From NCBI GenBank assembly GCA_963780755.1, contig CAWACX010000001.1, positions 351,278-415,277 of the forward strand: a stretch of DNA of 64,000 nt. Reading direction: 5' to 3'. The stretch's first letter is position 1. Every line of letters starts with the position of its first letter. Below, piece by piece: positions 36,899-63,298 of the stretch. This stretch comes from an uncultured Acidobacteriota bacterium (lineage in GTDB: Bacteria; Actinomycetota; Acidimicrobiia; Spongiisociales; ZC4RG35). The notes under the pieces are model-generated. The model had not been told where the DNA came from and ran no database searches. It saw nothing but the letters and a program-made list of their open reading frames with translations. A program made the position numbers and the translations under genes.

Positions 36899-37759
36899 TC
36901 AGCCGGCGTTGGCCAGCGCCTGCCGCAAAGCCCTAGCCGTGAACACCTTCGCCAGGTGGCCCTTGTACTCGACCGAGCCGTAGAGGTCCTCGAGCACGGT
37001 CACCCCTTCCAGGGCCTTCTCCGCCGCCGCCTTGATTGCATCGTCGGACCCGTCGGTGCCGATCAAGGCCTGGCCGACGCCTTCCGCCAGCATCGCCTTG
37101 GTGCCGACCCCGGTGAGAGCGACCCGGGCATCCTCTACGGTGCCATTGGACTTCTTCACCCAGGCCGCGGCTCCGGCCACCGCATAATCGGAATGGCCGC
37201 CACGTCGTCCCAACTTGTCATAGGCAGAGCCCTCACCAGGCCCGGCCTTGGGGATCCTGATCGAAGTCAGGATCTCGTCGGGACGGAGGTCCGAGGTGAG
37301 TGCATCGACGCAGAAGCTCTCGGAGTCGATCTCCCTGGTCCCCGAGGCTGACTGGGCGACCATCGTTCCCCTGCAGGCAATAACCGCTGCCGGCTGGTCG
37401 GCCGCCACATCGGCGTGGGCCAGCGACCCGCAGGTGGTCCCCCGGTTGCGCACCTGGACATCACCGGTCAACGAGGCCGCCATGGCCAGGGCGGCGGCAT
37501 TGGCCGCGATCAAGGGGTCGGACGCCGTTGTCGCATGACGCACCAGTGCCCCGATCGAGATGTGGTCTCCGCCGTCTTCGACAGAGTCGAGACCGGTGAT
37601 CCGGCCGATGTCCACCACCACACCAGGGGAGAACAGCCTCATTTTCATCAAGGGGAGAAGGCTCATGCCCCCAGCCATCACCTTGGCATCGTCACCGAGT
37701 GCGGTGAATGCCTCTTCGAGGCTGGCCGGTGCCACGTAGTCGAAGCTCCTTGGGTACAT
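36899..37759 (-). CDS. CoxM/CutM-like FAD subunit of xanthine dehydrogenase-family enzyme
   Basis: AGGMSLLPLMKMR, GDVQVRNRGT.CGS.AHAD. Confidence 0.9.
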   Translation of the reverse strand: MYPRSFDYVAPASLEEAFTALGDDAKVMAGGMSLLPLMKMRLFSPGVVVDIGRITGLDSVEDGGDHISIGALVRHATTASDPLIAANAAALAMAASLTGDVQVRNRGTTCGSLAHADVAADQPAAVIACRGTMVAQSASGTREIDSESFCVDALTSDLRPDEILTSIRIPKAGPGEGSAYDKLGRRGGHSDYAVAGAAAWVKKSNGTVEDARVALTGVGTKAMLAEGVGQALIGTDGSDDAIKAAAEKALEGVTVLEDLYGSVEYKGHLAKVFTARALRQALANAG

Positions 37760-37760
37760 G

Positions 37761-40135
<2,375 letters not shown>

Positions 40136-40136
<1 letters not shown>

Positions 40137-40633
40137 CAGTTCTCCCCCCAATCCGGCGCAGGTGGCTCTTCACCGCGCATCTTGGCCCCGGCGTACTCCA
40201 CGGCCCGCACGATGTTGTGATAGCCGGTGCAGCGGCAGAGGTTGCCTTCAATGCCGTGACGGATCTCGTCTTCGGATGGGTTGTTGTTCTCCTCGAGGAG
40301 CGCTGCCGCCGACATGATCATCCCCGGGGTGCAGAAGCCGCACTGGAGGCCGTGGCGCTCCCAAAAACCCTCCTGAACCGCATGAAGCTCGCCGTTGTTG
40401 GCGAGCCCCTCGATGGTGGTGATGTTGGTTCCGTCGGCTTGGACGGCGAGCATGGTGCATGACTTCACAGGCTTGCCGTCGAGATGGACGGTACAGGCGC
40501 CGCAGTATCCGGTTTCACAACCGACGTGCGTGCCGGTCAGGTGGAGATTCTCCCGGATCAGATGCACCAGGAGTGTCCTGGGCTCTACGTCTGCCGACAC
40601 CTCCCGTCCGTTGACAGTGAGGTTCACGTTCAC
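40136..40633 (-). CDS. CoxS-like [2Fe-2S] subunit
   Basis: [29 protein letters not shown]. Confidence 0.95.
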
Positions 40634-40717
40634 GAAGACCCCTTTCGGCCGCTTCGGATGGGACCGGGGGAACCTATCAAATCCAGGGGGCGCGTGCCGC
40701 CGGGAATTTGGCGGTTG

Positions 40718-41089
40718 TCAGAGTGAAGAGCCGAGGGCGAGGATGTTGCCTTCCGAGTCTTTGAACCAGGAGGTCTTCTCACCATCAGGGGAGTGGAGGA
40801 TTCCGTCAACGGTGCGGAAGTCGTCGCCAAGGTCATAGTCCTCGAAGACGACCCCACGGGAGAGAAGCTCCGCCCTGACCGTCTCGAAGTCGTCGACCAC
40901 AAGTCGCACGGCAGTTGCCTTGTTGGTGCCGGCGTTGTCCGACGGGTAGACCTGGAATTGGGCGGTACCGGTGTCGTAGAACAGCTCGTCGCCGGGCTCG
41001 GCCGGCTCCAGCCCGAGCTTCTCCGAGTACCACGCCTCCGCCCTTGCGATGTCAGAGGCGGGGAGCTGGGGGTACATCCTGAATTGCAT
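40718..41089 (-). CDS. VOC/glyoxalase family protein
   Basis: LPASDIARAEAWYSEKLGL, L.SRGVVFEDYD, WFKDSEGNIL; AAGGAG RBS. Confidence 0.9.
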   Translation of the reverse strand: MQFRMYPQLPASDIARAEAWYSEKLGLEPAEPGDELFYDTGTAQFQVYPSDNAGTNKATAVRLVVDDFETVRAELLSRGVVFEDYDLGDDFRTVDGILHSPDGEKTSWFKDSEGNILALGSSL

Positions 41090-41175
41090 GTGACTCCTTT
41101 CGAGAGCCGACCGTACAGCCGGACCGGCATCGCCGCACTGCCATTTCTGCGGAAGGGTCCAATGTCCGATCCCTA

Positions 41176-41203
41176 TCAACTTTTTCGCGGGATTGGCCGA
41201 TCT
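41176..41203 (+). promoter_or_regulatory. Possible sigma-28 (FliA/WhiG)-type promoter
   Basis: TCAA-N16-GCCGATCT, 6 nt before ATG at 41210. Confidence 0.35.
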
Positions 41204-41209
41204 TTTGAC

Positions 41210-42559
41210 ATGACTACAGGGCGCGCACCCGCGTCGACTCATCTCAAGAGCGCTTCGGTCAGAGAAGGATCGCCACCCCACGGGCCAGCCTCTGACGGCC
41301 CCATCGAAAGTGGCGGCTGGCTGCAGGACTGGATGAACCGAGTGTCCGACCTGGCGCGCCTGAAGGCAGCTCATCCCATGCTCGATGCTGTGATCGACGA
41401 GGTCGATGTGAGGCGAATCCGAGTGGGCGACCAGTGGCTCGCCGACTTTGCCTCGTGCAATTACCTCGGTTTGGACTGGAACCGGGAAGTCATCGACGCA
41501 ATACCGGGCTACCTTCGCCGCTGGGGAACCCACCCGAGTTGGTCGCGGCTCCTGGGTAGCCCTGCGATCTACGAGGAAATCGAGCACCGTCTGTCGACTC
41601 TCCTGGGCTCTGAGGATGTCCTTCTCTTGCCGACGATCACCCACATTCACATGTCGGTGATCCCCGTGTTGGCTGCATCGGGCGTGGTCTTTCTGGACCA
41701 AAGGGCGCACAAGACAATCTTCGACGGCTGCAGCGTTGCTCGGGGCAACGGGGCCACCATCCATCGTTTTCGGCATAACGACTACGAGCACCTAGAGCAA
41801 CTTCTGAAGTCGGATCGTCGCACTCCGCGGGTCATTGCAACCGATGGTGTCAACTCGATGACTGGAAACGCCCCGGACACTCATGAGTTGGCGCGCCTCG
41901 CTCGTGAGTACGACGCGTTGCTCTACATCGATGACGCTCATGGTTTCGGAGTGGTGGGCCATCGGGACCCACACGAGTTGAGTCATTACGGGGTGTCCGG
42001 TGATGGCCTGATCCGACATCACGGTGAGACCTACGAGAACGTGGTGTTCGTTGCCGGGATGTCCAAGGCGTATTCGTCACTGCTTGCGTTTCTGGCAGTT
42101 CCTACCCCGCTCAAGGACCTGCTCAAGGTGGCGGCACCCCCTTACCTGTTCTCAGGGCCTTCGCCAGTCGCCACGCTCGCCAGCGCGCTGGTCGGACTCG
42201 AGGTCAACGAGCGGAACGGTGACCGGTATCGCTACGAGATATTTCGAAAGACACGTGCTGTGCTCGAGTGCCTCGACGACCTGGGCATCTACACACCCAA
42301 CAGCTCGGGTTTCCCCATTGTCGAGATCCCGTTGGCCCGGCACGAAGATATCGACGGGGTGGGCCGCTTTCTATTCGAGCGAGGTATCTATGTGACCCTC
42401 GCCGCATACCCGCTGGTGCCCAAGCGTGAGGTCGGTTTCAGGGTTCAAATCACCAGTGCCAACGATGACGATCAGATTGAGCACCTGTGCGAGGTCATGG
42501 TCGATTTGGCGAGACGTTTCGCATTCCAGCCCTCAGACACCACGAGGCAAGCGAGCTGA
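41210..42559 (+). CDS. PLP-dependent alpha-oxoamine synthase family enzyme (BioF/Spt/CqsA superfamily); start uncertain
   Basis: FASCNYLGL, SRLLG, FRHND, DGVNSMTG, DDAHGFG, GMSKAY (PLP lysine), YLFSG. Confidence 0.88.
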   Translation: MTTGRAPASTHLKSASVREGSPPHGPASDGPIESGGWLQDWMNRVSDLARLKAAHPMLDAVIDEVDVRRIRVGDQWLADFASCNYLGLDWNREVIDAIPGYLRRWGTHPSWSRLLGSPAIYEEIEHRLSTLLGSEDVLLLPTITHIHMSVIPVLAASGVVFLDQRAHKTIFDGCSVARGNGATIHRFRHNDYEHLEQLLKSDRRTPRVIATDGVNSMTGNAPDTHELARLAREYDALLYIDDAHGFGVVGHRDPHELSHYGVSGDGLIRHHGETYENVVFVAGMSKAYSSLLAFLAVPTPLKDLLKVAAPPYLFSGPSPVATLASALVGLEVNERNGDRYRYEIFRKTRAVLECLDDLGIYTPNSSGFPIVEIPLARHEDIDGVGRFLFERGIYVTLAAYPLVPKREVGFRVQITSANDDDQIEHLCEVMVDLARRFAFQPSDTTRQAS

Positions 42560-42561
42560 TC

Positions 42562-44784
42562 ATGGCGACAGGTGAGCTGCAGCGACTCATGGCCAGACCG
42601 GAGTCGTTTGGGCCTCGCTTCACCCTCACGAGGGAGTCGGGGTGGAAGGTTTACCTACTGCTCGGCTCCCTGATACTGGCTGGATTCCTCCTGATCCCGA
42701 CGTTGCGGGTGGGGCCGCTGTTCAACATGATCGCGTTGTCGGGAGCGCTCGCCATCATCTTCACTCTGGGTCGCCACCGTCCCGAGCAGCGCATCCCCTG
42801 GCTGTTGGTTGCGGTAGGTCAGATCGTCTTCGTGGGCGGCGACATCATCACCTACAACTATGAGCGGTTCTTCGGAGTCGAGCCGCCTTTCCCCTCGCTG
42901 GGCGACCTCTTCTACCTGAGCGTCTACCCGTTCCTGATTGCGGGGATTCTCCTCATGATTCGCCGCCGGTCTCCGGGTCGAGATCGGGCGAGCCTCATCG
43001 ACTCGCTGATCATCGGATTCGGCGTCGGCACCTTGTCCTGGGTGTTCCTCATCGCGCCCTACCTCTACGACCCCACCCTGACCGTCTATCAGAAACTCGT
43101 CGCCATGGCCTATCCATTGATGGATCTGGTCTTGCTCACGGTGGCGGTTCGTCTCGGCATGGGGGCGGGTAAACGGTCCGTCGGTTTCTATCTGATGATG
43201 GCCTCGATCGGAGTCCTGTTCGTGACCGATGTCATCTACGGCTGGATCGTTCTCCATGGGGGTTACGACAACACCACGGGGTACCTCGAGGCGGGGTGGG
43301 GGATGTTCTACCTCCTCCTGGGGGCAGCCGCGCTTCACCTGACCACACCACTGATCGAAACACCCGAGCCCGAGCACGAGGCCACCCAGCCTCGGCTCCG
43401 GATCCTGCTTCTGGCATGTGCCGCCTTGATGGCTCCGACGGTGAACATCGTCCAATCGTTGCGCGGGGAAGCCATCGACGTGCCGATCGTCTCCGCCGCC
43501 GCTGCGTTGATGTTCATCTTCGTGCTGATGCGACTCAACGGACTGATGGTGGACATCAGTCAGTACCGAAGAACAGCTCGAGCGCTTACCGAAGCAGAGG
43601 CCAAGTACCGATCATTGGTTGAAGGGCTCCCCGCGGTGGTTTACGTCGCCGACTTCGGGGAGCAGGGCGACTTCACTTATGTCAGCCCCCAGATCGAGTC
43701 AGTGCTGGGCTTCACCCCTGATGAGTTCCAGACCGCCGCCTTCTGGAAGGAGCGCATCATCCCCGAGGACAGGGCTCGCGCCGTCGACGCCGAGCTACGC
43801 CTGGCGGGGGGGAACGCCCGACTCGAGGTCGAGTATCGGATGCTCGGGAAGGACGGGCAGGTTGTGTGGATCAGGGAGGATGCAGACGCGGTCCGCGACG
43901 AGAACGGCATTCCCCTCTATCTGCAGGGTGTGATGTATGACATCACCGAGCAGAAGACCATCGAACAGAAGTTGGTCAAGGCGCTGGCCGCCGAGAAGGA
44001 AACGAATCGCATTCGCTCTGAGTTCGTACTCATGATCAACCATGAGCTGCGCACGCCACTCACGAGTGTGGTCTCAGGCGCCGAGGTGCTCGCCGACTTC
44101 GGGCTGTCCGAGGATGACCGACAGATGATCATCGCCGACATGCTGCGTGATGGCCGAAGACTCGACGGGCTCATCTCCCAGATGCTGACTGTGGCTCGCA
44201 TCGAGAACAGCGGGCTCAACTTCAGCCTGACCAGGACAGAGGTGAGTCAGGTGCTCGAGCGAATCAGGCAGACGGCCGACAGCCGGCTCTACGCATTGGA
44301 CGACGCCTGGGCTGGCGATGCAGTGGTCCACACCGATCGCGAGGCCCTCGTCCAGCTGCTGACCTCGCTTGCCGACAACGCGTTCACTCACGGGGCATCG
44401 AAGGTGGCGATCCAGGTCACCCCAACCCTCCGCTTCAACCCCATACACACGGTGGGGACCCAACCCCAGCAGACGTTGTTCTTCCTGGTATTGGACAATG
44501 GGCCTGGAATCGACCACGAGTTCCTGCCTCGAGCCTTCGAAAAGTTCGAGAAGCACAGCCGGAGCTCTGGTACTGGGCTCGGCCTCTACCTGGCCCGGCT
44601 CATGGTCGAGGCAATGCAAGGCGCCATCTCGGTCCATACCGGGCCGAGTGGCACGATCATGGCCGTGGCGATACCACTGGTGTCGGTCGACGGGCCGCCC
44701 GCGGACGGCGATCCGAGCTTTAACGGCAACGGGCTCGAAACCACCCAGCTTTCCCAACGCCTGTCATCGGCACTGGCTGAATAA
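42562..44784 (+). CDS. Multi-TM sensor histidine kinase with PAS/PAC domain
   Basis: About 9-10 TMs (PFPSLGDLFYL), PAS YVSPQIESVLG..PEDR, HELRTPLT, DNGPGI, GTGLGL. Confidence 0.92.
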   Translation: MATGELQRLMARPESFGPRFTLTRESGWKVYLLLGSLILAGFLLIPTLRVGPLFNMIALSGALAIIFTLGRHRPEQRIPWLLVAVGQIVFVGGDIITYNYERFFGVEPPFPSLGDLFYLSVYPFLIAGILLMIRRRSPGRDRASLIDSLIIGFGVGTLSWVFLIAPYLYDPTLTVYQKLVAMAYPLMDLVLLTVAVRLGMGAGKRSVGFYLMMASIGVLFVTDVIYGWIVLHGGYDNTTGYLEAGWGMFYLLLGAAALHLTTPLIETPEPEHEATQPRLRILLLACAALMAPTVNIVQSLRGEAIDVPIVSAAAALMFIFVLMRLNGLMVDISQYRRTARALTEAEAKYRSLVEGLPAVVYVADFGEQGDFTYVSPQIESVLGFTPDEFQTAAFWKERIIPEDRARAVDAELRLAGGNARLEVEYRMLGKDGQVVWIREDADAVRDENGIPLYLQGVMYDITEQKTIEQKLVKALAAEKETNRIRSEFVLMINHELRTPLTSVVSGAEVLADFGLSEDDRQMIIADMLRDGRRLDGLISQMLTVARIENSGLNFSLTRTEVSQVLERIRQTADSRLYALDDAWAGDAVVHTDREALVQLLTSLADNAFTHGASKVAIQVTPTLRFNPIHTVGTQPQQTLFFLVLDNGPGIDHEFLPRAFEKFEKHSRSSGTGLGLYLARLMVEAMQGAISVHTGPSGTIMAVAIPLVSVDGPPADGDPSFNGNGLETTQLSQRLSSALAE

Positions 44785-46079
44785 TGGAGCACCGTTCGGT
44801 GCCTGAGGATGGGAGCGGCGCCTTCAGGCTCTTCCGACCGCTGCGGATCCGGGACTTCAGATTGTTGTGGTCCGGCCTCGTCGTCTCTCTGATCGGGGAT
44901 GGGATGTTCCTGATCGCCATGGCGTGGCAGGTATACGAGCTCTCCGATGCCCCGAGTGCCCTGGCAATGGTCGGGCTGTCAATGTCGATACCTCATGTCT
45001 TGTTTCTGCTGATCGGGGGGGTGGTCACCGATCGCGTTGATCGTAGGAAGGTGATGATCGGGGCCGATCTGGTGCGCGGGCTGGCGGTGGGTCTGCTTGG
45101 CCTCCTCGCAGTGAGCGGAAACATCGCTCTCTGGCACATCGTGGCCCTCGTGGCTGTCTACGGAGCCGGCAACGCATTCTTCGGCCCGGCGTTCGATGCC
45201 ATCGTCCCCGACGTCGTCCCACCCGAGCTCCTTACGCAGGCGAACTCAATGGACCAACTCGTCCGGCCTGCGGCATGGCAAATGGCGGGGCCCGCCATCG
45301 GGGGAGTGGTCGTCGGGGTGCTCGGAGCCGGCGCGGCATTCCTCATCGACGCCGGAACGTTTGCGATCTCGATCTGGGCACTCTCTCTGATCAGGTCGAA
45401 GGTCAGCGATGAGCCGGGCGAGACCGAGGGATCCCTCTTCGAAGAAGTAGCGGTGGGTCTTCGCTATGTCCGGCAGCGGGTCTGGCTCTGGGGCACTTTC
45501 CTCGCCGCGACCGTCGGCTACCTCATGTTCCTGGGACCGGTCGAGGTGCTCCTCCCTTACGTCGTCAAGAACGAGATGGGCGGCTCGGCTACCGACCTCG
45601 GGTTCATCCTTGCTGTCGGAGGGATTGGCGCCATCGGTGCCGCGATGTTCATGAGTGCTCGTGGGATTCCACGAAGGAACATGACATTCATCTACGTCAC
45701 CTGGACCATCTCCACCTTGGCGGTGGCCGGCTACGGGCTGGCCAACTATCCATGGCAGGCGATGGTCGCGGCGTTCATCTTCGGCTCATTCGAGGCCGCC
45801 GGTCTCATCGCGTGGATCACCACGAAACACCGGCTGGTGCCCCGTCATCTCCTGGGGCGGGTTTCGAGCCTGGATTGGTTCATCTCGATCGGTCTCCTCC
45901 CGGTCTCCTACGCGCTCACGGTTCCGGCGGCCGAGTACTTGGGTCCCCGTACCAGCTTGATCGCTGCTGGCGTCTTGGGAGCAGCCGGCACCCTCGCCTT
46001 CCTGTTTCTCCCCGGAATGCGTGATCCCGAGGAGATGCAGCCAGCTCTTTCCGGCCCGGTCGAACTGACCACTGCCTGA
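44784..46079 (+). CDS. MFS transporter (DHA3/EntS-like)
   Basis: DFRLLWSG..VSLIGD, GGVVTDRVDRRKVM, LLGRVSS; ~12 TMs; TAATG overlap with kinase. Confidence 0.92.
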   Translation: MEHRSVPEDGSGAFRLFRPLRIRDFRLLWSGLVVSLIGDGMFLIAMAWQVYELSDAPSALAMVGLSMSIPHVLFLLIGGVVTDRVDRRKVMIGADLVRGLAVGLLGLLAVSGNIALWHIVALVAVYGAGNAFFGPAFDAIVPDVVPPELLTQANSMDQLVRPAAWQMAGPAIGGVVVGVLGAGAAFLIDAGTFAISIWALSLIRSKVSDEPGETEGSLFEEVAVGLRYVRQRVWLWGTFLAATVGYLMFLGPVEVLLPYVVKNEMGGSATDLGFILAVGGIGAIGAAMFMSARGIPRRNMTFIYVTWTISTLAVAGYGLANYPWQAMVAAFIFGSFEAAGLIAWITTKHRLVPRHLLGRVSSLDWFISIGLLPVSYALTVPAAEYLGPRTSLIAAGVLGAAGTLAFLFLPGMRDPEEMQPALSGPVELTTA

Positions 46080-46407: not shown

Positions 46408-46485
46408 CGTTGGGCGAGAAGCGGTGGCTAACACGGCCTCTCGTTGGGCGAGGAGTTGTGGCTAACGCAACTTCTCGCAACAACG
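46408..46485. repeat. Direct + inverted repeat (REP-like) downstream of tRNA
   Basis: CGTTGGGCGAGRAGYKGTGGCTAAC at 46408-46432 and 46442-46466, then complementary arm GCAACTTCTCGCAACAACG. Confidence 0.6.
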
Positions 46486-46506: not shown

Positions 46507-46954
46507 TCAGCTGACCGCAGTCTTCACGAGGGCTGCGATTTTCTTTTCGACGGCCGGGGTCCATTCGCCGATCGCAAAGACAACGGGCCACATTGGCTGG
46601 TCGTCGAGATTCGCCGAGTCTTCGAATCCCAACATCGCATAGCGACCGTCGAACTTGGATGCGGCCTTGAAGAAGCAGATGAGCTTGCCGTCTGGTCTCG
46701 CGTAGGCAGGCATGCCGTACCAGGTCCGGGACAGAAGCTCCGGCACGTTCGCGGTGACGAGCGCGTGTATCCGTTCGGCGATGACCCGATCTGCCTTCGG
46801 CATCTCGGCGATTGCATCGAGCACGGCGCCGTTCGTTGTCGGCCTGTTTCTGGCCTCCGCGACCCTGCGCCTTCAACTCCTGGGCACGGGCCTTCATAGC
46901 CTCACGCTCCGCCGCCGAAAAGCCGTCCGAGCCGGATTTCTTCGTAGTGGTCAC
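46507..46954 (-). CDS. DUF1801 (YdhG-like) protein; +1 frameshift near 46826
   Basis: GFSAAEREAMKARAQELKA then VLDAIAEM, TWYGMPAYA, CFFK.ASKF..RY. Confidence 0.88.
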
Positions 46955-48703: not shown

Positions 48704-48788
48704 TTGCGGACGATAGCCCAGGGCCTCGTCGCTGCCCTGGCCGGGTGGAAGAATGCCCATCGTGAATTCCCCGCGCCCGGTGGGAAGG

Positions 48789-50000
48789 ATGAATCGAACC
48801 GTCGACAGGCTGTTGTCGATCGGCACCTACCCGGAGGAGCTGGAGGCACAGCGAGCCCGACGGCGCATCATGGTGGCCGCAATCTTCCTGGCGACTCTGT
48901 TGTCCATCGTTGGTATTGCCAGCGACGCAAATGCCGGGTTTGTCCTGTCGGTCTGGTTTGGCCTGGCGGTCGTCGTGATCACGGTCGGTGTGCTCGTCGC
49001 CCTGCACCTACGACCACTCTGGTTTGCAGCTCTGGTCAACGCATTATTTGTCGCAGTGACCCTTTCCCAGCTCGTGGAGGCCACGTTGTTTGGTGGATTC
49101 CTCGAGTCAGGGCTGGTCGTTATGTTCGGTCTGGTCATTGTGACCGGTGCCCTGGTCGCACTCGGCACCAAGGCGGCGTACTGGTGGTTTGCGGCTTTTG
49201 TCCTGTCGGTTGTCTATTCGGTCCTCATCCCCAACTGGGTGGACCCGGTCTATGTGATGACCGACCCGGGAGGCGACGCAGCATTCAACCTCGTAGCTGC
49301 AGGATCGGTGATATTTGCGGTGATGGTCTATTTCGTGCGACAACGCGACAGATTCCAGAAGCAGTCCGACGACCTGCTTCACAACATCCTGCCGGACGAG
49401 ATCGCCAAGCGACTCAAGGTGGACACCGCGATGATCGCCGATTCCTTCCCATCGGCCTCGGTGCTGTTCGCCGACGTGGTGGGATTCACCCCGATGTCAG
49501 CCGGAATGTCCGCCCCGGAGTTGGTTGGCCTGCTGAACAGCATTTTCACCACCTTCGATGGCTTCGTGGAAGAGCTGGGACTGGAGAAGATCAAGACCGT
49601 TGGAGATGCCTACATGGCCGCCGCAGGCGTACCGGAGACCCGGGTCGACCATGCCGAAGCAATCGCTGAGCTCGCCCTGCGCATCCGCGATCATGTGGCG
49701 GATCACGAGTTCGCGGGACACAAGATCGCGGTTCGGATCGGGATCAACTCCGGCCCGGTGATCGCCGGGATCATCGGCACCCACAAGTTCTCCTACGACC
49801 TCTGGGGAGATGTGGTGAACACGGCGAGCCGGATGGAGTCGGAGGGAGTGCCTGGGGCGATACAGGTGAGCGCCAGCACCTGCGAATTGATACGGAGCCG
49901 GTTCTTTTGCGAGCCGCGTGGCACTGTCTCGATCAAGGGAAAAGGCGAGATGGAGACCTACATCCTTCTTTCGCGTCGGGCTCCTGCCCCGGTTGATTAG
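48789..50000 (+). CDS. Membrane-bound class III adenylate cyclase
   Basis: About six TMs, LLHNILP, LFADVVGFT, EKIKTVGDAYM, YDLWGDVVNTASRME (K/D = ATP specificity). Confidence 0.93.
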   Translation: MNRTVDRLLSIGTYPEELEAQRARRRIMVAAIFLATLLSIVGIASDANAGFVLSVWFGLAVVVITVGVLVALHLRPLWFAALVNALFVAVTLSQLVEATLFGGFLESGLVVMFGLVIVTGALVALGTKAAYWWFAAFVLSVVYSVLIPNWVDPVYVMTDPGGDAAFNLVAAGSVIFAVMVYFVRQRDRFQKQSDDLLHNILPDEIAKRLKVDTAMIADSFPSASVLFADVVGFTPMSAGMSAPELVGLLNSIFTTFDGFVEELGLEKIKTVGDAYMAAAGVPETRVDHAEAIAELALRIRDHVADHEFAGHKIAVRIGINSGPVIAGIIGTHKFSYDLWGDVVNTASRMESEGVPGAIQVSASTCELIRSRFFCEPRGTVSIKGKGEMETYILLSRRAPAPVD

Positions 50001-50014
50001 CTAGTGAGCAAGGG

Positions 50015-50371
50015 TTGAAGTTCGAGGCCGTCGACCAGTACCTCGCCGCCCAGCCCGAGGAGGTCCGGGAGATCCTGGAGAGGATCCGGGAGCGGATGAG
50101 GGAATGGGTCCCCGACGGCGAGGAGGTCATCAGCTACCAGATCCCGACCATCAAGGTCGGTGGCAAGGCCGTGGTCTATTTCGCGGCTTGGAAGAGCCAC
50201 ATCTCGATCTATCCCGTCCACCCGCTCGACGAGCCGTTGGAGGCCGAAGTCTCCAGGTACCGCTCGGGCAAGGACACGTTGCGCTTCCCTCTCGACGAGC
50301 CGATTCCGTATGACTTGATCGGACAGGTAGTCGCAGCGATCCTCGCCAGACATCAGGGGAAGACGGGCTGA
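50015..50371 (+). CDS. DUF1801 (YdhG-like) protein
   Basis: VDQYLAAQP, EVISYQIPT, FAAWKSHISIYP, LRFPLDEPIP. Confidence 0.88.
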   Translation: MKFEAVDQYLAAQPEEVREILERIRERMREWVPDGEEVISYQIPTIKVGGKAVVYFAAWKSHISIYPVHPLDEPLEAEVSRYRSGKDTLRFPLDEPIPYDLIGQVVAAILARHQGKTG

Positions 50372-50377
50372 CCGTTC

Positions 50378-50719
50378 CTAGCGGCTGTCGAATTCCACGG
50401 CTTGGGCGATGTAGTAGCGGAGGGCGTCGGTGTCCATCGTGTCCACGCTCTTCATCCTGACGTTCTTCGACACGTGGCCAACTCCTTCGAGCAGCCCAAA
50501 CTCGTCGTCGAACTCGGCCCCCCGAGAGAAGGCGAGTGTGATGCCCTTCTTCGTCGGGCTGATCACGGCGATAATCCGTGTCAGCTTGTAACTCGGTATC
50601 CCGTAGCTGATGATCTCGTCGGCGTCGGGGGCGCACTCTCGCATCATCTCCCGGATCCTCTCGACCACAGGTCGGTACTCGGGGAGGACCTTGGTGGCGA
50701 CGAATTCATCGACGGTCAC
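50378..50719 (-). CDS. DUF1801 (YdhG-like) protein
   Basis: EIISYGIP, F.RGAEFDD.FGLLEG.G, LRYYI.QA. Confidence 0.8.
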   Translation of the reverse strand: MTVDEFVATKVLPEYRPVVERIREMMRECAPDADEIISYGIPSYKLTRIIAVISPTKKGITLAFSRGAEFDDEFGLLEGVGHVSKNVRMKSVDTMDTDALRYYIAQAVEFDSR

Positions 50720-50991: not shown

Positions 50992-51561
50992 TCAGGGGGA
51001 CGCGACCCGACCCGTATCGACCGGATCGAGGCGAGGGGAGTGGGCGTAGGCCCATCCCAAACACACCAGTCCGGCACACATCGAGATCAGGCCGATCAAT
51101 GCGGCCCACCGTTCCAGCCCGACCGGCGGTCGGCTGTTCTCGTCACCGAGATGGGCGCCGGCGAGGAACACAGAGAGCCAGAGCAGGGCGCCCACGCCAA
51201 GGAGGAGGGGCACGAGGCGGCGTCGATGGACGCGGTATTCGAACAAGGCGATCAGCGCCATCCCGGCCGAGTACAAGGGATGGCTGACGGTGAGGCCGAG
51301 CGCTGTCGAACCCACGGCCAACCACCAAACGGCTGTCGACTCGCCTCGTCGAGCAAGCTCGAGCCCGATCAGCCACATCCCCCCGATGGTGAGCACGAGG
51401 GCAAGGGCGTGGAGCCCGAGCGCGGCGGGCCAGAACCCCGACAACGGATTGTCCCCGAACCACCCCGGGGCGAGGGTGGTCGGGCTCCACTGGAACAAGA
51501 AGTAGGCGAGTCCTCCCGCCGCCATCAGCCAGCCCCCGGCGCGTGACCCCAAGGGTGTCAT
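50992..51561 (-). CDS. Multi-TM hypothetical membrane protein
   Basis: About six hydrophobic segments; ATGA overlap with upstream phosphatase. Confidence 0.65.
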   Translation of the reverse strand: MTPLGSRAGGWLMAAGGLAYFLFQWSPTTLAPGWFGDNPLSGFWPAALGLHALALVLTIGGMWLIGLELARRGESTAVWWLAVGSTALGLTVSHPLYSAGMALIALFEYRVHRRRLVPLLLGVGALLWLSVFLAGAHLGDENSRPPVGLERWAALIGLISMCAGLVCLGWAYAHSPRLDPVDTGRVASP

Positions 51562-53862
51562 CGTTCCACCTCCGCAAGTACGGGCACCCTCGTCAGTGTG
51601 ACCATCGTGATGTCGTCTTCCTGTTCCCAGCCATTCCCCACGAACTCCTCATGGGCAGCGAGGGCCTCGGCCACCAGGTCGCCGCTCCCATCTACGGCAG
51701 CGATGGCCTCTCGGAGCCGATCGGTGCCGAACATCTCGCCATCAGGTGCATGTGCCTCGGCGAGGCCGTCACTGGTGAGGGTGAGGCTCTCGGTCGGCCG
51801 CAGCGCTCCTTCTACCTCCTCGTAATCCATGCCCGGCATCAGGCCGAGCGGCATGCCGCGAACCATGATCTCCGTCACCGAGTCGCTGGAGCTGACGTAG
51901 GGGAGGTTGTGGCCGGCGTTGGCGGCCACCATGGTTCCCAGGACCGGGTCGATCACTGTGAGCAGGCAGGTCACGAACATCCCGTCGGGTATGTCCGGCT
52001 CGAGGCGGTTGTTGACATCGGCCAGCACCCGACCCGGAGGCATGCCACTGCTGGCAGCCACCCGGAGCAGGGTCATGCAGGTGGCCATCACCAGGGCGGC
52101 AGGTATGCCCTTGTCGCTGACATCACCGATGACCACCGCCAATCGTCCGTCGGGCAGAGGTATCCAGTCGAAGAAGTCGCCACCCACCTCGCGGGCGGGG
52201 CGATAGACCGAATCGAAGGCCCAACCTTCGATGTTCGGGGGCTCATGGGGGAGAAGCCCCTGCTGGATTTTCCGGGCCAGCTCGAGCTCGTGGACCTCGC
52301 GCTCCCGGTTTCGGGCGTCTCGTTCCCGGGTGCGGACCTCGTATGTCAACTGCAACGCAGGCCCGGCGGCCTGGGCCAGCCGGTCGAGCAGGTCGAGGTC
52401 GAGGGCCGAGTACGCGCGACTCAGAGGAGCGCTTGCCGAGGTCAAGCACACCTGTCAGAGACCCGCCTGCAACCAGGGGGACCAACACTGCCGAGCCGTT
52501 CGATCGGAATGGGACGAGCCCGGGGCTCGGCGGGACTGATGAGAGGTCTACGGCGGTGCCCTCTCCCAGGTCTTCATGCGTCGCTGGGGAGAATGGCCCG
52601 GTGTGCAACTTCACAGACATCGGGTGCAGCGCCTGCTCGACGACAGTCACCAGCCTGGACTCGAGGGTGAGAGGATCGACGAGTCGAGATGCCTCGCCGG
52701 CGAACTGATCGATCACCAGGCGGGCGTCATACCGCTCCCGGTCGAAGCGGCGGTCCACCGACCGCTGCACCCTTCGGCGCAACGGGTTGAACACGAGCGC
52801 GATGCACGTTCCGAGGACAACACCGGCGGCGCCCGACCCCTCGAAAGCGAGATCGGGGAAGTAAGAAGTGAGGGCAGTGATCAACACGGTCAGGGCAAGA
52901 AACGCGAGTCCGACGACCGCGGTCACGGTCCCGTAGACCAGGGCCCGATTGACGATGAGGTCGAGGTCGAACATGCGGTGGCGGACAATGGCCACCGAGA
53001 CCGACACCGGGAACATGAACACCGCGATCGTGAGCAGGAAGAGGATGTTGAGGGCGTAGACCGCCTTGAGTCGGGGAGTCACCACCACCAGGTCGAGAAC
53101 GCCGGACGTCAGCTCCGGCTGAAGCGCCCAAAGCAGGAGGAAAGCGCCTAAGGCCGCGATCAGGGAGATCAAGACCGGCTTGGTGGCCGGTGCCAAAGGA
53201 GTCCGCAGCCGGCGCACCATCTGAGCAGCGATCGCGGCGATCGGGACTCCGACCAGCCAGAGCGCCTGAAGGGCGTAAGGCCAGGTCCGGGGATCGACGA
53301 AGGTGCTGGGCAGGAGCAGGGTGAGGAATCCGATGACCGCGGCCGTTGCCACCAGCCACCTCGTCCATAACGGTTCCCATCGCCCGTCGGGGAAGGTTGC
53401 GAGAAACGCAAGCGAGGCAACGCCGGCCAGGGAGCTCCAGAAGGTGAACAGCGACGTCGGGGTGATCGAGCCAAGGAGCGCCGCCAGGTCGAACGAGCCC
53501 GGGAGAAGGTACAGGGGCGCGAAGAGGCTGGTCCCCAGTGCGGCCAGGGTGACCGCGGCCAATGGCGCTCGATCGGAGGCGCCGCGCTTCGCTATCAGCA
53601 ACGTCGCCAAGCCCACGAATACTGCGATCCCGACGATGTGAAGGACGCGCTGGGTGACTCCGAGCGCCGGAAGCTCGAAGAGCACCGCCAGTTCGCTCTC
53701 CATGTGGCGGTCCACGGCAGCGGGGCCTTGGGGAAGCAGCCCACGGGCCGGGTTGCGGAGCAGCAGTCCCATCGAGGCAACCGACGCCATGGCCAGCAAC
53801 GTCACGACGAAGGCACCGATCCAGCGTGGCAGCAGCGCGGTCCTCGGGGAGAGCGTGGTCAC
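51558..53862 (-). CDS. Membrane-anchored GAF-like + SpoIIE/PP2C phosphatase (RsbU-like); +1 frameshift near 52413
   Basis: TM domain FPDGR, PLRRRVQRSVDRRF; then ARKIQQGLLP, VGGDFFD, GDVSDKG.PAAL, MFVT, NAGH, SDGLAEA, DDIT. Confidence 0.88.
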
Positions 53863-62666: not shown

Positions 62667-63298
62667 GTACCCGGCTCTACCTCGTCGATGACCACCGGCT
62701 GTTCCTGGCCGGGGTCAAGGCCGAGTTGGAAGAGGAATTCGAGATCGTCGGATCGGCCAACGACGTGGACACTGCCATCGAGCAGATCCGCACCGCCAAG
62801 CCCGCCGTGGTGCTGATCGACGTCCACATGCCCGACGGTGGGGGTATCGCAGTCGTGGAGGGAGTGGCGGCCACCGATCCCGATGTGAAGTTCTTAGCGC
62901 TGTCGGTGTCGGACCAGGCGGAGGACGTGATCGCCATGATTCGGGCCGGGGCTCGGGGGTACGTGACCAAGACCATCGAGCCCGCCGAGCTGGCCGACGC
63001 GATCCGGCGTGTCGATTCGGGAGACGCAGTGTTCTCCCCGCGGCTCGCCGGGTTCGTTCTCGACGCCTTCGCGGGCGCCATGCCCTCGGACGAGGACCCG
63101 GAGCTGGACCAGCTCACCTCGCGGGAGAAAGACGTGCTCCGGCTGATCGCTCGGGGGTTCGCCTACAAGCAGGTGGCGCGCAAGCTCAACATCTCGATAA
63201 AGACGGTGGAGACCCATGTCTCCTCGGTGTTGCGCAAGCTGCAGCTCTCCAACCGCCACGAGCTGGCGAGGTGGGCGAGCAAGCGCCGGATCGTCTAG
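62663..63298 (+). CDS. NarL/LuxR family response regulator
   Basis: VDDH, LIDVHMPDG, GARGYVTK, LTSRE..VL, ISIKTVETH. Confidence 0.95.
   Translation: MSTRLYLVDDHRLFLAGVKAELEEEFEIVGSANDVDTAIEQIRTAKPAVVLIDVHMPDGGGIAVVEGVAATDPDVKFLALSVSDQAEDVIAMIRAGARGYVTKTIEPAELADAIRRVDSGDAVFSPRLAGFVLDAFAGAMPSDEDPELDQLTSREKDVLRLIARGFAYKQVARKLNISIKTVETHVSSVLRKLQLSNRHELARWASKRRIV

Follow-up and report, generated by a model that had tools for sequence, protein, structure and literature searches.

Does an enzyme dependent on pyridoxal phosphate (PLP) and encoded beside a membrane-bound sensor kinase make the compound which that kinase perceives? The question is raised by three closely packed genes in a 64,000-nucleotide stretch of contig CAWACX010000001.1 (assembly GCA_963780755.1), referred to throughout as the window, from an uncultured member of the phylum Actinomycetota. 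In it, a gene for an alpha-oxoamine synthase (AOS) is followed by genes for a sensor histidine kinase and a major facilitator superfamily (MFS) transporter, for which a reading made from the sequence alone had proposed an undescribed ketone-based signalling system. Across Actinomycetota, the AOS and the N-terminal membrane domain of the kinase are linked far beyond chance, and we see a somewhat better than even chance that the AOS would make an amino-ketone signal of lipid-like character, which the MFS protein would export and the membrane domain sense. The features of the module, in window coordinates, are as follows.

41162..42559, + strand: AOS, PLP-dependent, 465 aa; PF00155 at 90.9 bits; member of a distinct sensor-linked clade
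42562..44784, + strand: sensor histidine kinase, 740 aa, with a predicted 10-helix membrane domain, PAS, HisKA and HATPase_c
42562..43596, + strand: membrane sensor domain, kinase residues 1-345, outside every Pfam family
43675..44019, + strand: PAS domain of the kinase, about residues 372-486 (converted from a 765-aa translation, offset 25 residues); PAS_3 71.6 bits, PAS 38.9 bits
44014..44679, + strand: HisKA (49 bits) and HATPase_c (60.9 bits) of the kinase
44784..46079, + strand: MFS_3 transporter by Pfam, 431 aa, EntS/Tet(V)-like H+ antiporter type, presumed exporter
40634..41161, + strand: intergenic region of 528 nt between a divergent coxS-like gene and AOS, presumed promoter region of the module

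Linkage of synthase and membrane domain in Actinomycetota

The AOS and kinase residues 1-345 were used in separate searches of 401 genomes spread evenly over the phylum of the window, a sample whose tallies include the unpublished genomes G120, G148, G018 and G239 (here G denotes a sampled genome, L a fetched locus, f a family and g a genus). At E<=1e-60 the AOS was detected in 38 of the 401 genomes (about 9%) and in 22 of the 249 genera, and members of the orthologous clade in 35 of the 401. By family, AOS genomes amounted to 5/26 in f14, 13/21 in f19, 11/22 in f27 and 3/31 in f24; the remaining five comprised four of genus g47, plus G249. The three further genomes from the family of the window yielded no AOS, and neither did those of its order and class that were searched. 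The membrane domain was detected at E<=1e-5 in 150 of the 401 genomes, often in several copies, and was present in 37 of the 38 AOS genomes as against 113 of the 363 genomes devoid of AOS.

For the analysis of gene neighbourhoods, 39 of the 41 AOS loci were fetched (the window itself and unpublished G120 being left out), all three proteins of the module being mapped by phmmer. The adjacency of synthase and sensor, which the sequence-only reading had seen at a single locus, proved to be kept in this even sample, with a membrane domain lying within 2.6 kb of 34 of the 38 orthologous AOS genes (G120 was judged from coordinates only, and the match at L047 was weak, 59 bits). Two of the four misses are contig-end cases; at one of them (L058), what remains at the contig end includes the catalytic half of a kinase from the same HisKA_3 family. 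In a separate collection, four of five close AOS loci also carry the membrane domain. By our own estimate, based on few copies of the domain per 3-6 Mb, it would be expected by chance within 6 kb of AOS in only about 1% of genomes. Since the arrangement of the genes differs between lineages, the linkage has survived rearrangement.

In f27, AOS is followed by a transmembrane (TM)-PAS-HisKA kinase as in the window, then by MFS and a TM-GAF-PAS-GGDEF-EAL protein; in f14 it is followed by TM-GGDEF-EAL and MFS; and in f19 a TM-HisKA_3 kinase precedes AOS, usually with a REC or REC-GerE regulator between them (7 loci). The PAS-HisKA kinase output occurs in the window, L020 and L029-L032. Outright fusion of the enzyme to the TM domain was found in four genomes and in metagenomic homologues. 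In g47, with genomes of 7-10 Mb, a single open reading frame (ORF) of 1434-1635 aa is present (L037, L038, L042, L043), which in the two of the four that were read with Pfam (L037, L038) has the order TM-PAS-GGDEF-EAL-AOS. Among proteins of at least 815 aa, 521 match the AOS at E<=1e-50; in the best 120 homologues of this length GGDEF, EAL and PF00155 occur together in 119, and an N-terminal membrane domain in 116, the latter with weak scores (30-41 bits). Between 7 and 9 hydrophobic segments were counted in the 14 of 15 inspected long homologues that carry the domain. In the sister clade (f24), AOS is fused to AMP-binding (FAAL-like) and PP-binding domains (L044 7309-10806, L045 5939-9295) and stands divergently beside a membrane-domain gene in two of three loci, that of L044 encoding TM-HisKA-HATPase-REC-REC-Hpt. 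Because kinase, hybrid kinase and GGDEF-EAL forms are all seen, the constant partner of AOS is the membrane domain, and the output varies.

Some members of these sets are irregular. The metagenomic proteins P0278 and P0313 show other orders, namely an AOS part followed by TM, and TM followed by an AOS part with no GGDEF or EAL; they could represent additional kinds of fusion or errors of gene calling. In G092 the membrane-domain gene is split over two frames, and the AOS of one G215 locus over three (L021 7850-8819 and L055 7466-8661); decay or assembly error is possible for both.

Genes for export, tailoring and activation are linked to AOS at part of the loci. An orthologous MFS_3 gene occurs in 13 of 37 sample loci (12 besides the window; 406-567 bits), plus L001 and L005. 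A short-chain dehydrogenase/reductase (SDR) gene directly adjoins AOS in L002, L003, L026 and L033 and lies within 0.3-0.9 kb of it in L047 and L048. S-adenosylmethionine (SAM) methyltransferase genes are found in six f19 loci and, at each of the four g47 loci, directly behind the gene for the fusion (L037 7262-8161, L038 12362-13072, L042 7295-8029, L043 12038-12763); the g47 products resemble, weakly and below cut-off, the NNMT/PNMT/TEMT amine N-methyltransferases (E between about 3e-5 and 6e-5). An acyl-CoA synthetase gene flanks AOS in L046 and L048, and a ketoacyl synthase (KAS) gene is situated three genes away in L048. In view of the FAAL-like sister fusion, the acyl-CoA synthetase neighbours and the nearby KAS, the acyl substrate of the AOS is probably a fatty acid.

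The distribution of the module is uneven even among close relatives. In G183 and G074, TM-GGDEF-EAL lies in the same syntenic slot, between genes for a class-III aminotransferase and an S13 peptidase, and in their congeners G222 and G116 this slot additionally holds an SDR and AOS. As presence varies within the genus at one slot, AOS is an accessory gene, present or absent from one genome to the next alongside a sensor gene that stays. In G017 and G047, relatives from the family of the window, the synteny DAO..Usp-coxMLS is shared and breaks right after coxS, at the module; the fetched parts of these two genomes did not contain the genes that follow the module in the window, and do not show a clean insertion site. 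The G+C content of 41-46.5 kb is 0.60-0.62, below the 0.66-0.69 of the left flank in a window that is high in G+C overall. The synteny break, the lower G+C and the absence from relatives suggest that the module was probably acquired, in a variable region.

The enzyme clade and its membrane partner

The AOS tree (49 rows, IQ-TREE, LG+G4) included as references E. coli BioF and Kbl, BioF-like and ALAS rows classified by NCBIfam, serine palmitoyltransferase (SPT) rows over cut-off and six CqsA-type rows over cut-off; two of three alpha-type SPT rows (L076, L077) were dropped as probable wrong ORFs with a long branch. The sensor-linked AOS formed one clade (UFBoot/SH-aLRT 99/99), its sister being the small f24 clade (100/100), and between this pair and all the references lay a branch of 1.09 changes per column. 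The result of a quick tree with 65 rows was the same. The enzyme, which the sequence-only reading had set apart by its motifs, therefore fell outside BioF, Spt, Kbl and CqsA in a clade of its own.

No NCBIfam cut-off was reached by the AOS. Its best match was bioF, and source databases label its homologues '8-amino-7-oxononanoate synthase'; an identity as BioF was rejected on a score of 186.6 against 426.45 (TIGR00858), on its place outside the BioF rows and on the lack of biotin-pathway context. Kbl was rejected likewise (NF005394 149.9 against 460, TIGR01822 132.2 against 493; not grouped with Kbl), as were SPT (NF047599 156.9/500, NF047600 149.7/640, NF047603 109.8/670; outside the SPT rows) and the CqsA/LqsA type (NF005526 95.4 against 428), the six over-cut-off references of which form a separate 100/100 clade. 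In the 89%-complete assembly, the best bioB match scored 29 against 225 and the best bioA match 270 against 405, and bioD was not found; as neither bioB nor bioD was found there, the organism may be a biotin auxotroph. The earlier remark that biotin and sphingolipid genes are absent nearby holds among the Pfam-scanned neighbours. A second AOS paralogue (L039; G000 contig 2, 317762-318820) groups with E. coli Kbl (99/97) and scores 304 bits with Kbl and 301 with BioF, both below cut-off. Judged from the tree placement, the missed cut-offs, the Kbl-like paralogue and the missing bio genes, the AOS is a distinct enzyme clade and none of BioF, Kbl, SPT, ALAS or CqsA.

The motifs AHKT, in place of HAS in BioF and Kbl, and DGVNSMTGN were verified in the AOS as the sequence-only reading had described them. 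Alignment with the references showed that the enzyme retains the His of AHKT, DDAHG, the Lys of SKAYSS and the Arg of GFRVQIT; the first three align with BioF, Kbl, SPT, ALAS and CqsA-type references, as befits a member of the AOS family. From the literature on BioF and SPT we take these to be the ring-stacking His, the Schiff-base Lys and, for Arg, the C-terminal residue that binds the carboxylate. Catalytic residues, Arg included, are at least 95% conserved within the clade, and by alignment the catalytic set is intact. The alignment gave no indication of which amino acid serves as substrate. The clade is marked by CNYLG, WGTHPSWSR, DGxNSMxGN, FSGPSP and an insert of about 11 residues following DDAHGFGxxGxR, and mean column identity over 44 cluster representatives is 74%. 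The family is abundant in metagenomes, very much so in those from soil, and source names point to Actinomycetota, Acidimicrobiales and Solirubrobacterales.

The window AOS matches 49 AOS-family sequences in the PDB at E<=1e-10, the nearest being bifunctional 8-amino-7-oxononanoate synthase (AONS)/KBL (144 bits; 7poa, 8s1y) and bacterial SPT (130 bits; 3a2b, 8guh), with CqsA at 61 bits. Alignments with AONS/KBL and SPT span nearly the whole catalytic domain, and the fold type and the PLP-binding residues are shared. Unlike both, however, the AOS has CNYLG for NDYLG, WGTHPSWSR in place of the Gly-rich loop, the 11-residue insert, FSGPSP, an N-terminal extension and different genomic partners.

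The membrane domain of the kinase, about 340 residues long, had no match in Pfam (E<=0.01) or NCBIfam. In an alignment of 37 linked copies, 16 positions are invariant (W80, G93, D115, R136, D147, G154, W160, P166, P185, R197, D223, L258, H259, R280, F318 and R324) and D94, D141 and D188 nearly so. An AF2 model (pLDDT 88.2, pTM 0.85) has ten long helices, with the conserved Asp, Arg and His inside predicted helices (D188, D223) or at helix ends, and the conserved charged residues could bind an amine. By the positive-inside rule the topology would be N-in, C-in, with the NYxxF...PFPSxxD loop facing outward. A Foldseek search of the model against the PDB gave no match at E<=0.001, and VIA-align likened residues 44-264 to generic 7TM bundles with a Z of 11.5 (rmsd 4.3 A over 194 residues), a value within the tool's range for unrelated helical bundles. 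MASE3, MASE4 and HisKA_7TM are comparable as N-terminal integral-membrane input domains with kinase, GGDEF and EAL outputs. Unlike these, residues 1-345 are without a Pfam or NCBIfam match, and their language-model similarity in a protein atlas is 0.94 to unnamed Actinomycetota clusters versus 0.80-0.83 to the three named domains.

A profile search of 1.84 billion representatives returned 15,830 proteins with this domain at E<=0.001 and 10,056 at E<=1e-10. Pfam scans of 58 of the best 150 matches revealed HisKA/HisKA_3 kinases, hybrid kinases, GGDEF and GGDEF-EAL proteins and AOS fusions as partners, with 11 of the 58 lacking a Pfam match at E<=1e-8; given this spread of outputs, the membrane domain is therefore read as an input domain. 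Of the 37 AOS-linked domains in a 63-copy tree, 35 fell in one set of 47 rows (SH-aLRT 86), which also holds six copies from AOS-less genomes and six unlinked copies. The other unlinked copies were basal, the unlinked rows having been picked from lower-scoring hits and not forming an unbiased sample. A complex prediction of kinase residues 1-500 with the AOS scored 0.00 against a mark of 0.32, which is evidence neither way.

Readings of the module

The closest precedents are CqsA/CqsS and LqsA/LqsS, which the sequence-only reading had already invoked and in which an AOS-family PLP enzyme is likewise encoded beside a polytopic membrane histidine kinase. One enzyme can suffice to make the CqsA/LqsA-type signal. 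All six fetched CqsA-type loci have a membrane kinase of 428-623 aa next door. The window AOS differs from CqsA in its score (95 bits against the cut-off of 428) and its separate clade. When the 37-sequence alignment of the membrane domain was compared by hhalign with the membrane regions of these six kinases, which were taken as CqsS/LqsS from gene position only, homology was undetectable (probability 0.3%, 11 columns; no phmmer match), and a CqsS/LqsS-type receptor was rejected. Further differences are the ten predicted helices here versus about six in CqsS/LqsS, the cyclic di-GMP (c-di-GMP) enzyme outputs, the synthase-receptor fusions and the phylum itself. On paper, then, the module works like CqsA/CqsS, although neither part belongs to those families.

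In the signalling mechanism that we favour, the PLP enzyme would join an amino acid and a fatty acyl thioester in a condensation that yields a lipid-like alpha-amino ketone, which the MFS_3 pump would export. The 10-helix membrane domain of the kinase would perceive this product, and the PAS domain would relay the event and so set autophosphorylation of the kinase. In other lineages, the same membrane domain would drive synthesis and breakdown of c-di-GMP or would be fused to the synthase; in the genome of the window the module has the kinase form only, with its response regulator presumably encoded elsewhere. We infer the acyl substrate, the export and the binding of the product by the membrane domain. 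A synthase-receptor pair is favoured because the sensing domain stays constant under changing outputs, because fusions occur and because activation, tailoring and export genes are linked, and the patchiness of AOS within a genus beside a resident sensor fits an accessory signal gene. The wider proposal of an Actinomycetota-wide communication system, in which an AOS-made cationic lipid amine would be read by a new type of 10-helix receptor through a phosphorelay or directly as c-di-GMP, is more speculative, and we hold it only tentatively.

Several observations weigh against the signalling mechanism. G274 (93% complete) has AOS and no membrane-domain match genome-wide, G176 has no membrane domain within 16 kb of AOS on contig C244, and kinship among the genomes inflates the linkage counts. 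Five f27 genomes (G299, G332, G196, G183 and G074) keep TM-GGDEF-EAL with no AOS at E<=1e-60, and because the protein persists there the sensor does not need AOS. Roughly two of every three loci lack MFS, and the window locus has no acyl-activating or tailoring gene (SDR, methyltransferase or acyl-CoA synthetase). In the fusions AOS comes last, after EAL, which is the usual place of an output and not of a signal source, and the f19 order kinase-regulator-AOS also fits a two-component system controlling a target gene.

The last two points lead to the main rival, which we regard as unlikely: AOS would be a regulated output, making a secondary metabolite or protective lipid, and the sensor would read an unrelated cue, such as the state of the membrane or an external compound, with the kinase or c-di-GMP protein controlling expression or activity of AOS. 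The C-terminal position of AOS behind EAL in all fused forms and the f19 gene order speak for it, as do the persistence of the sensor gene where AOS is absent and the greater frequency of the membrane domain (150 genomes versus 38 with AOS, of 401). However, the regulators of a mere target should vary, and here it is the sensing domain that is constant while HisKA, HisKA_3, hybrid and GGDEF-EAL outputs change; the window kinase has no nearby regulator to act on the operon, and the grouping of 35 of the 37 AOS-linked membrane domains in one part of their tree is likewise difficult to reconcile with it. We consider it less probable still that AOS makes an aminolipid resembling a long-chain base, retained in the membrane as with SPT, whose level the membrane domain would monitor for homeostasis. 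Once two AONS/KBL entries are set aside, SPTs, at 130 bits, are among the closest solved relatives; the sister clade has a carrier and a domain for fatty-acid activation, an SDR adjoins AOS in L002, L003, L026 and L033 in a placement like that of ketosphinganine reductase, and the sensor is an integral membrane domain. Yet the three SPT models score far below cut-off and AOS lies outside the SPT clades, a structural lipid would hardly be expected to be patchy within a genus, a third of the loci have a linked MFS of the efflux type, and no ceramide synthase or reductase set is conserved.

A PLP-dependent co-sensor of the MocR/GabR kind, in which the AOS-like protein would report the level of an amino acid or acyl-CoA by contact, would account for the covalent fusion to a signalling protein, and the Trp-rich N-terminal motif of stand-alone AOS, lacking in the one fused form aligned (L037), could serve for docking. 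The conservation of at least 95% of every catalytic residue, the carboxylate-binding Arg included, the plainly biosynthetic character of the sister with FAAL, acyl carrier protein and AOS, and the linked tailoring enzymes and exporter make this very improbable. That an ordinary BioF or Kbl adjoins an unrelated kinase and transporter by chance is what the source-database names and the best NCBIfam match, bioF, would suggest, but the enzyme falls far short of both (186.6 against 426 for bioF, 150 against 460 for Kbl) in a separate 99/99 clade. With bioB, bioA and bioD not over cut-off in the genome, a Kbl-like paralogue elsewhere, linkage in 34 of 38 orthologues and fusions besides, this is effectively excluded.

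The small-molecule signals known in Actinomycetota are mainly of the butyrolactone type and are read by repressors in the cytoplasm, and an amino-ketone synthase with a membrane receptor, if such it is, would be a second and mechanistically different channel in the phylum. Solirubrobacterales-type genomes and one large-genome genus would then hold synthase, receptor and second-messenger enzymes in one polypeptide, such fused autoinduction could close without a transcription step, and relatives that keep the receptor alone would be eavesdroppers. A candidate ligand class would also be at hand for a large orphan sensor domain, the 10,056 cluster representatives mentioned above, and the fusions offer a biochemical handle, with enzyme, receptor and read-out in one protein.

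In Streptomyces venezuelae, CdgF and CdgC are described as membrane-bound composite c-di-GMP enzymes of the form 10TM-PAS-GGDEF-EAL with unknown input signals (PMC6205966). They match the GGDEF-EAL partners found here and are likened to them by architecture only, and the passages of that paper on CdgF and CdgC mention no AOS partner; if homology were confirmed, the module might also give a ligand class to these 10TM enzymes. Literature searches on oxoamine synthases with GGDEF/EAL, on AONS with diguanylate cyclases in Streptomyces, on CqsA and alpha-hydroxyketones in Actinobacteria and on Streptomyces signalling brought up no description of the module. The alkyloxazole signal (PMC13367870) is a nonribosomal peptide synthetase product and was set aside as unrelated to the module.

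Gene calls and surroundings of the module

The three same-strand genes were confirmed as ORFs with Pfam families for AOS, kinase and MFS, and the spacing given by the sequence-only reading is exact: the TGA of AOS ends at 42559 and the kinase ATG lies at 42562, a gap of 2 nt, and the last base of the kinase TAA (44782-44784) is also the first of the MFS ATG (44784-44786), which gives the TAATG overlap. The AOS start at 41176 had to be corrected, since no start codon is found there and the position is out of frame. Of the ATGs in the reading frame, at 41162, 41210 and 41333, the one at 41162 was chosen because 94 stand-alone homologues of at least 455 aa share the N-terminal extension and opening. 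These open with MStPe, the window AOS with MSDPYQ, and the motif PLRRExDxWLERWM precedes their catalytic core; the extension of the window AOS carries a GWLQDWM motif. The sequence GAAGGG is positioned 4 nt ahead of ATG 41162.

The kinase qualifies as a histidine kinase in Pfam (HisKA 49 against a cut-off of 26.9, HATPase_c 60.9 against 26.4), its phospho-acceptor His lying within HELRTPL. The transporter belongs to MFS_3 (PF05977 151.6 bits, cut-off 27; PF07690 114 bits) and stays below NCBIfam cut-offs (TIGR00900 234 bits); an identity as Tet(V) was rejected at 252.6 bits against a cut-off of 640. The kinase had been described as an orphan, and locally this is borne out: the protein has no receiver domain of its own, no cognate response regulator is adjacent, and the nearest of the 16 receiver domains in the genome lies about 18 kb downstream (window 62681-63007). 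Kinases of the same type in L020 and L029-L032 are also without a clear receiver domain, the only weak match near them scoring 21 bits, 4.3 kb from AOS in L029.

Upstream, the module is divergent from a molybdenum hydroxylase operon of the CoxM/CoxL/CoxS type (FAD_binding_5, MoCoBD, Fer2_2) at window 36899-40633 on the minus strand. In the intergenic region, ORF 40630-41130(-) has no Pfam match and failed a GC3-based coding filter, and a promoter scan of 40634..41161 found no sigma-70-like site, which is uninformative. The module is followed by small ORFs without assignment and then by genes for an F420H2-dependent reductase and an adenylate cyclase. Further features downstream are the class III adenylate cyclase, a convergent DUF1801 pair and a SpoIIE-type phosphatase (window 48753-50000, 50015-50719 and 51558-52451), and other genomes gave no sign of a tie between these and the module. 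Apart from one tandem repeat, neither the scans for promoters and terminators nor the search for repeats near the module returned more than chance would. The repeat consists of two 34-nt units (79% alike) in non-coding DNA downstream of the MFS gene (window 46408-46475), and it is followed by a terminator-like hairpin at 46516-46537.

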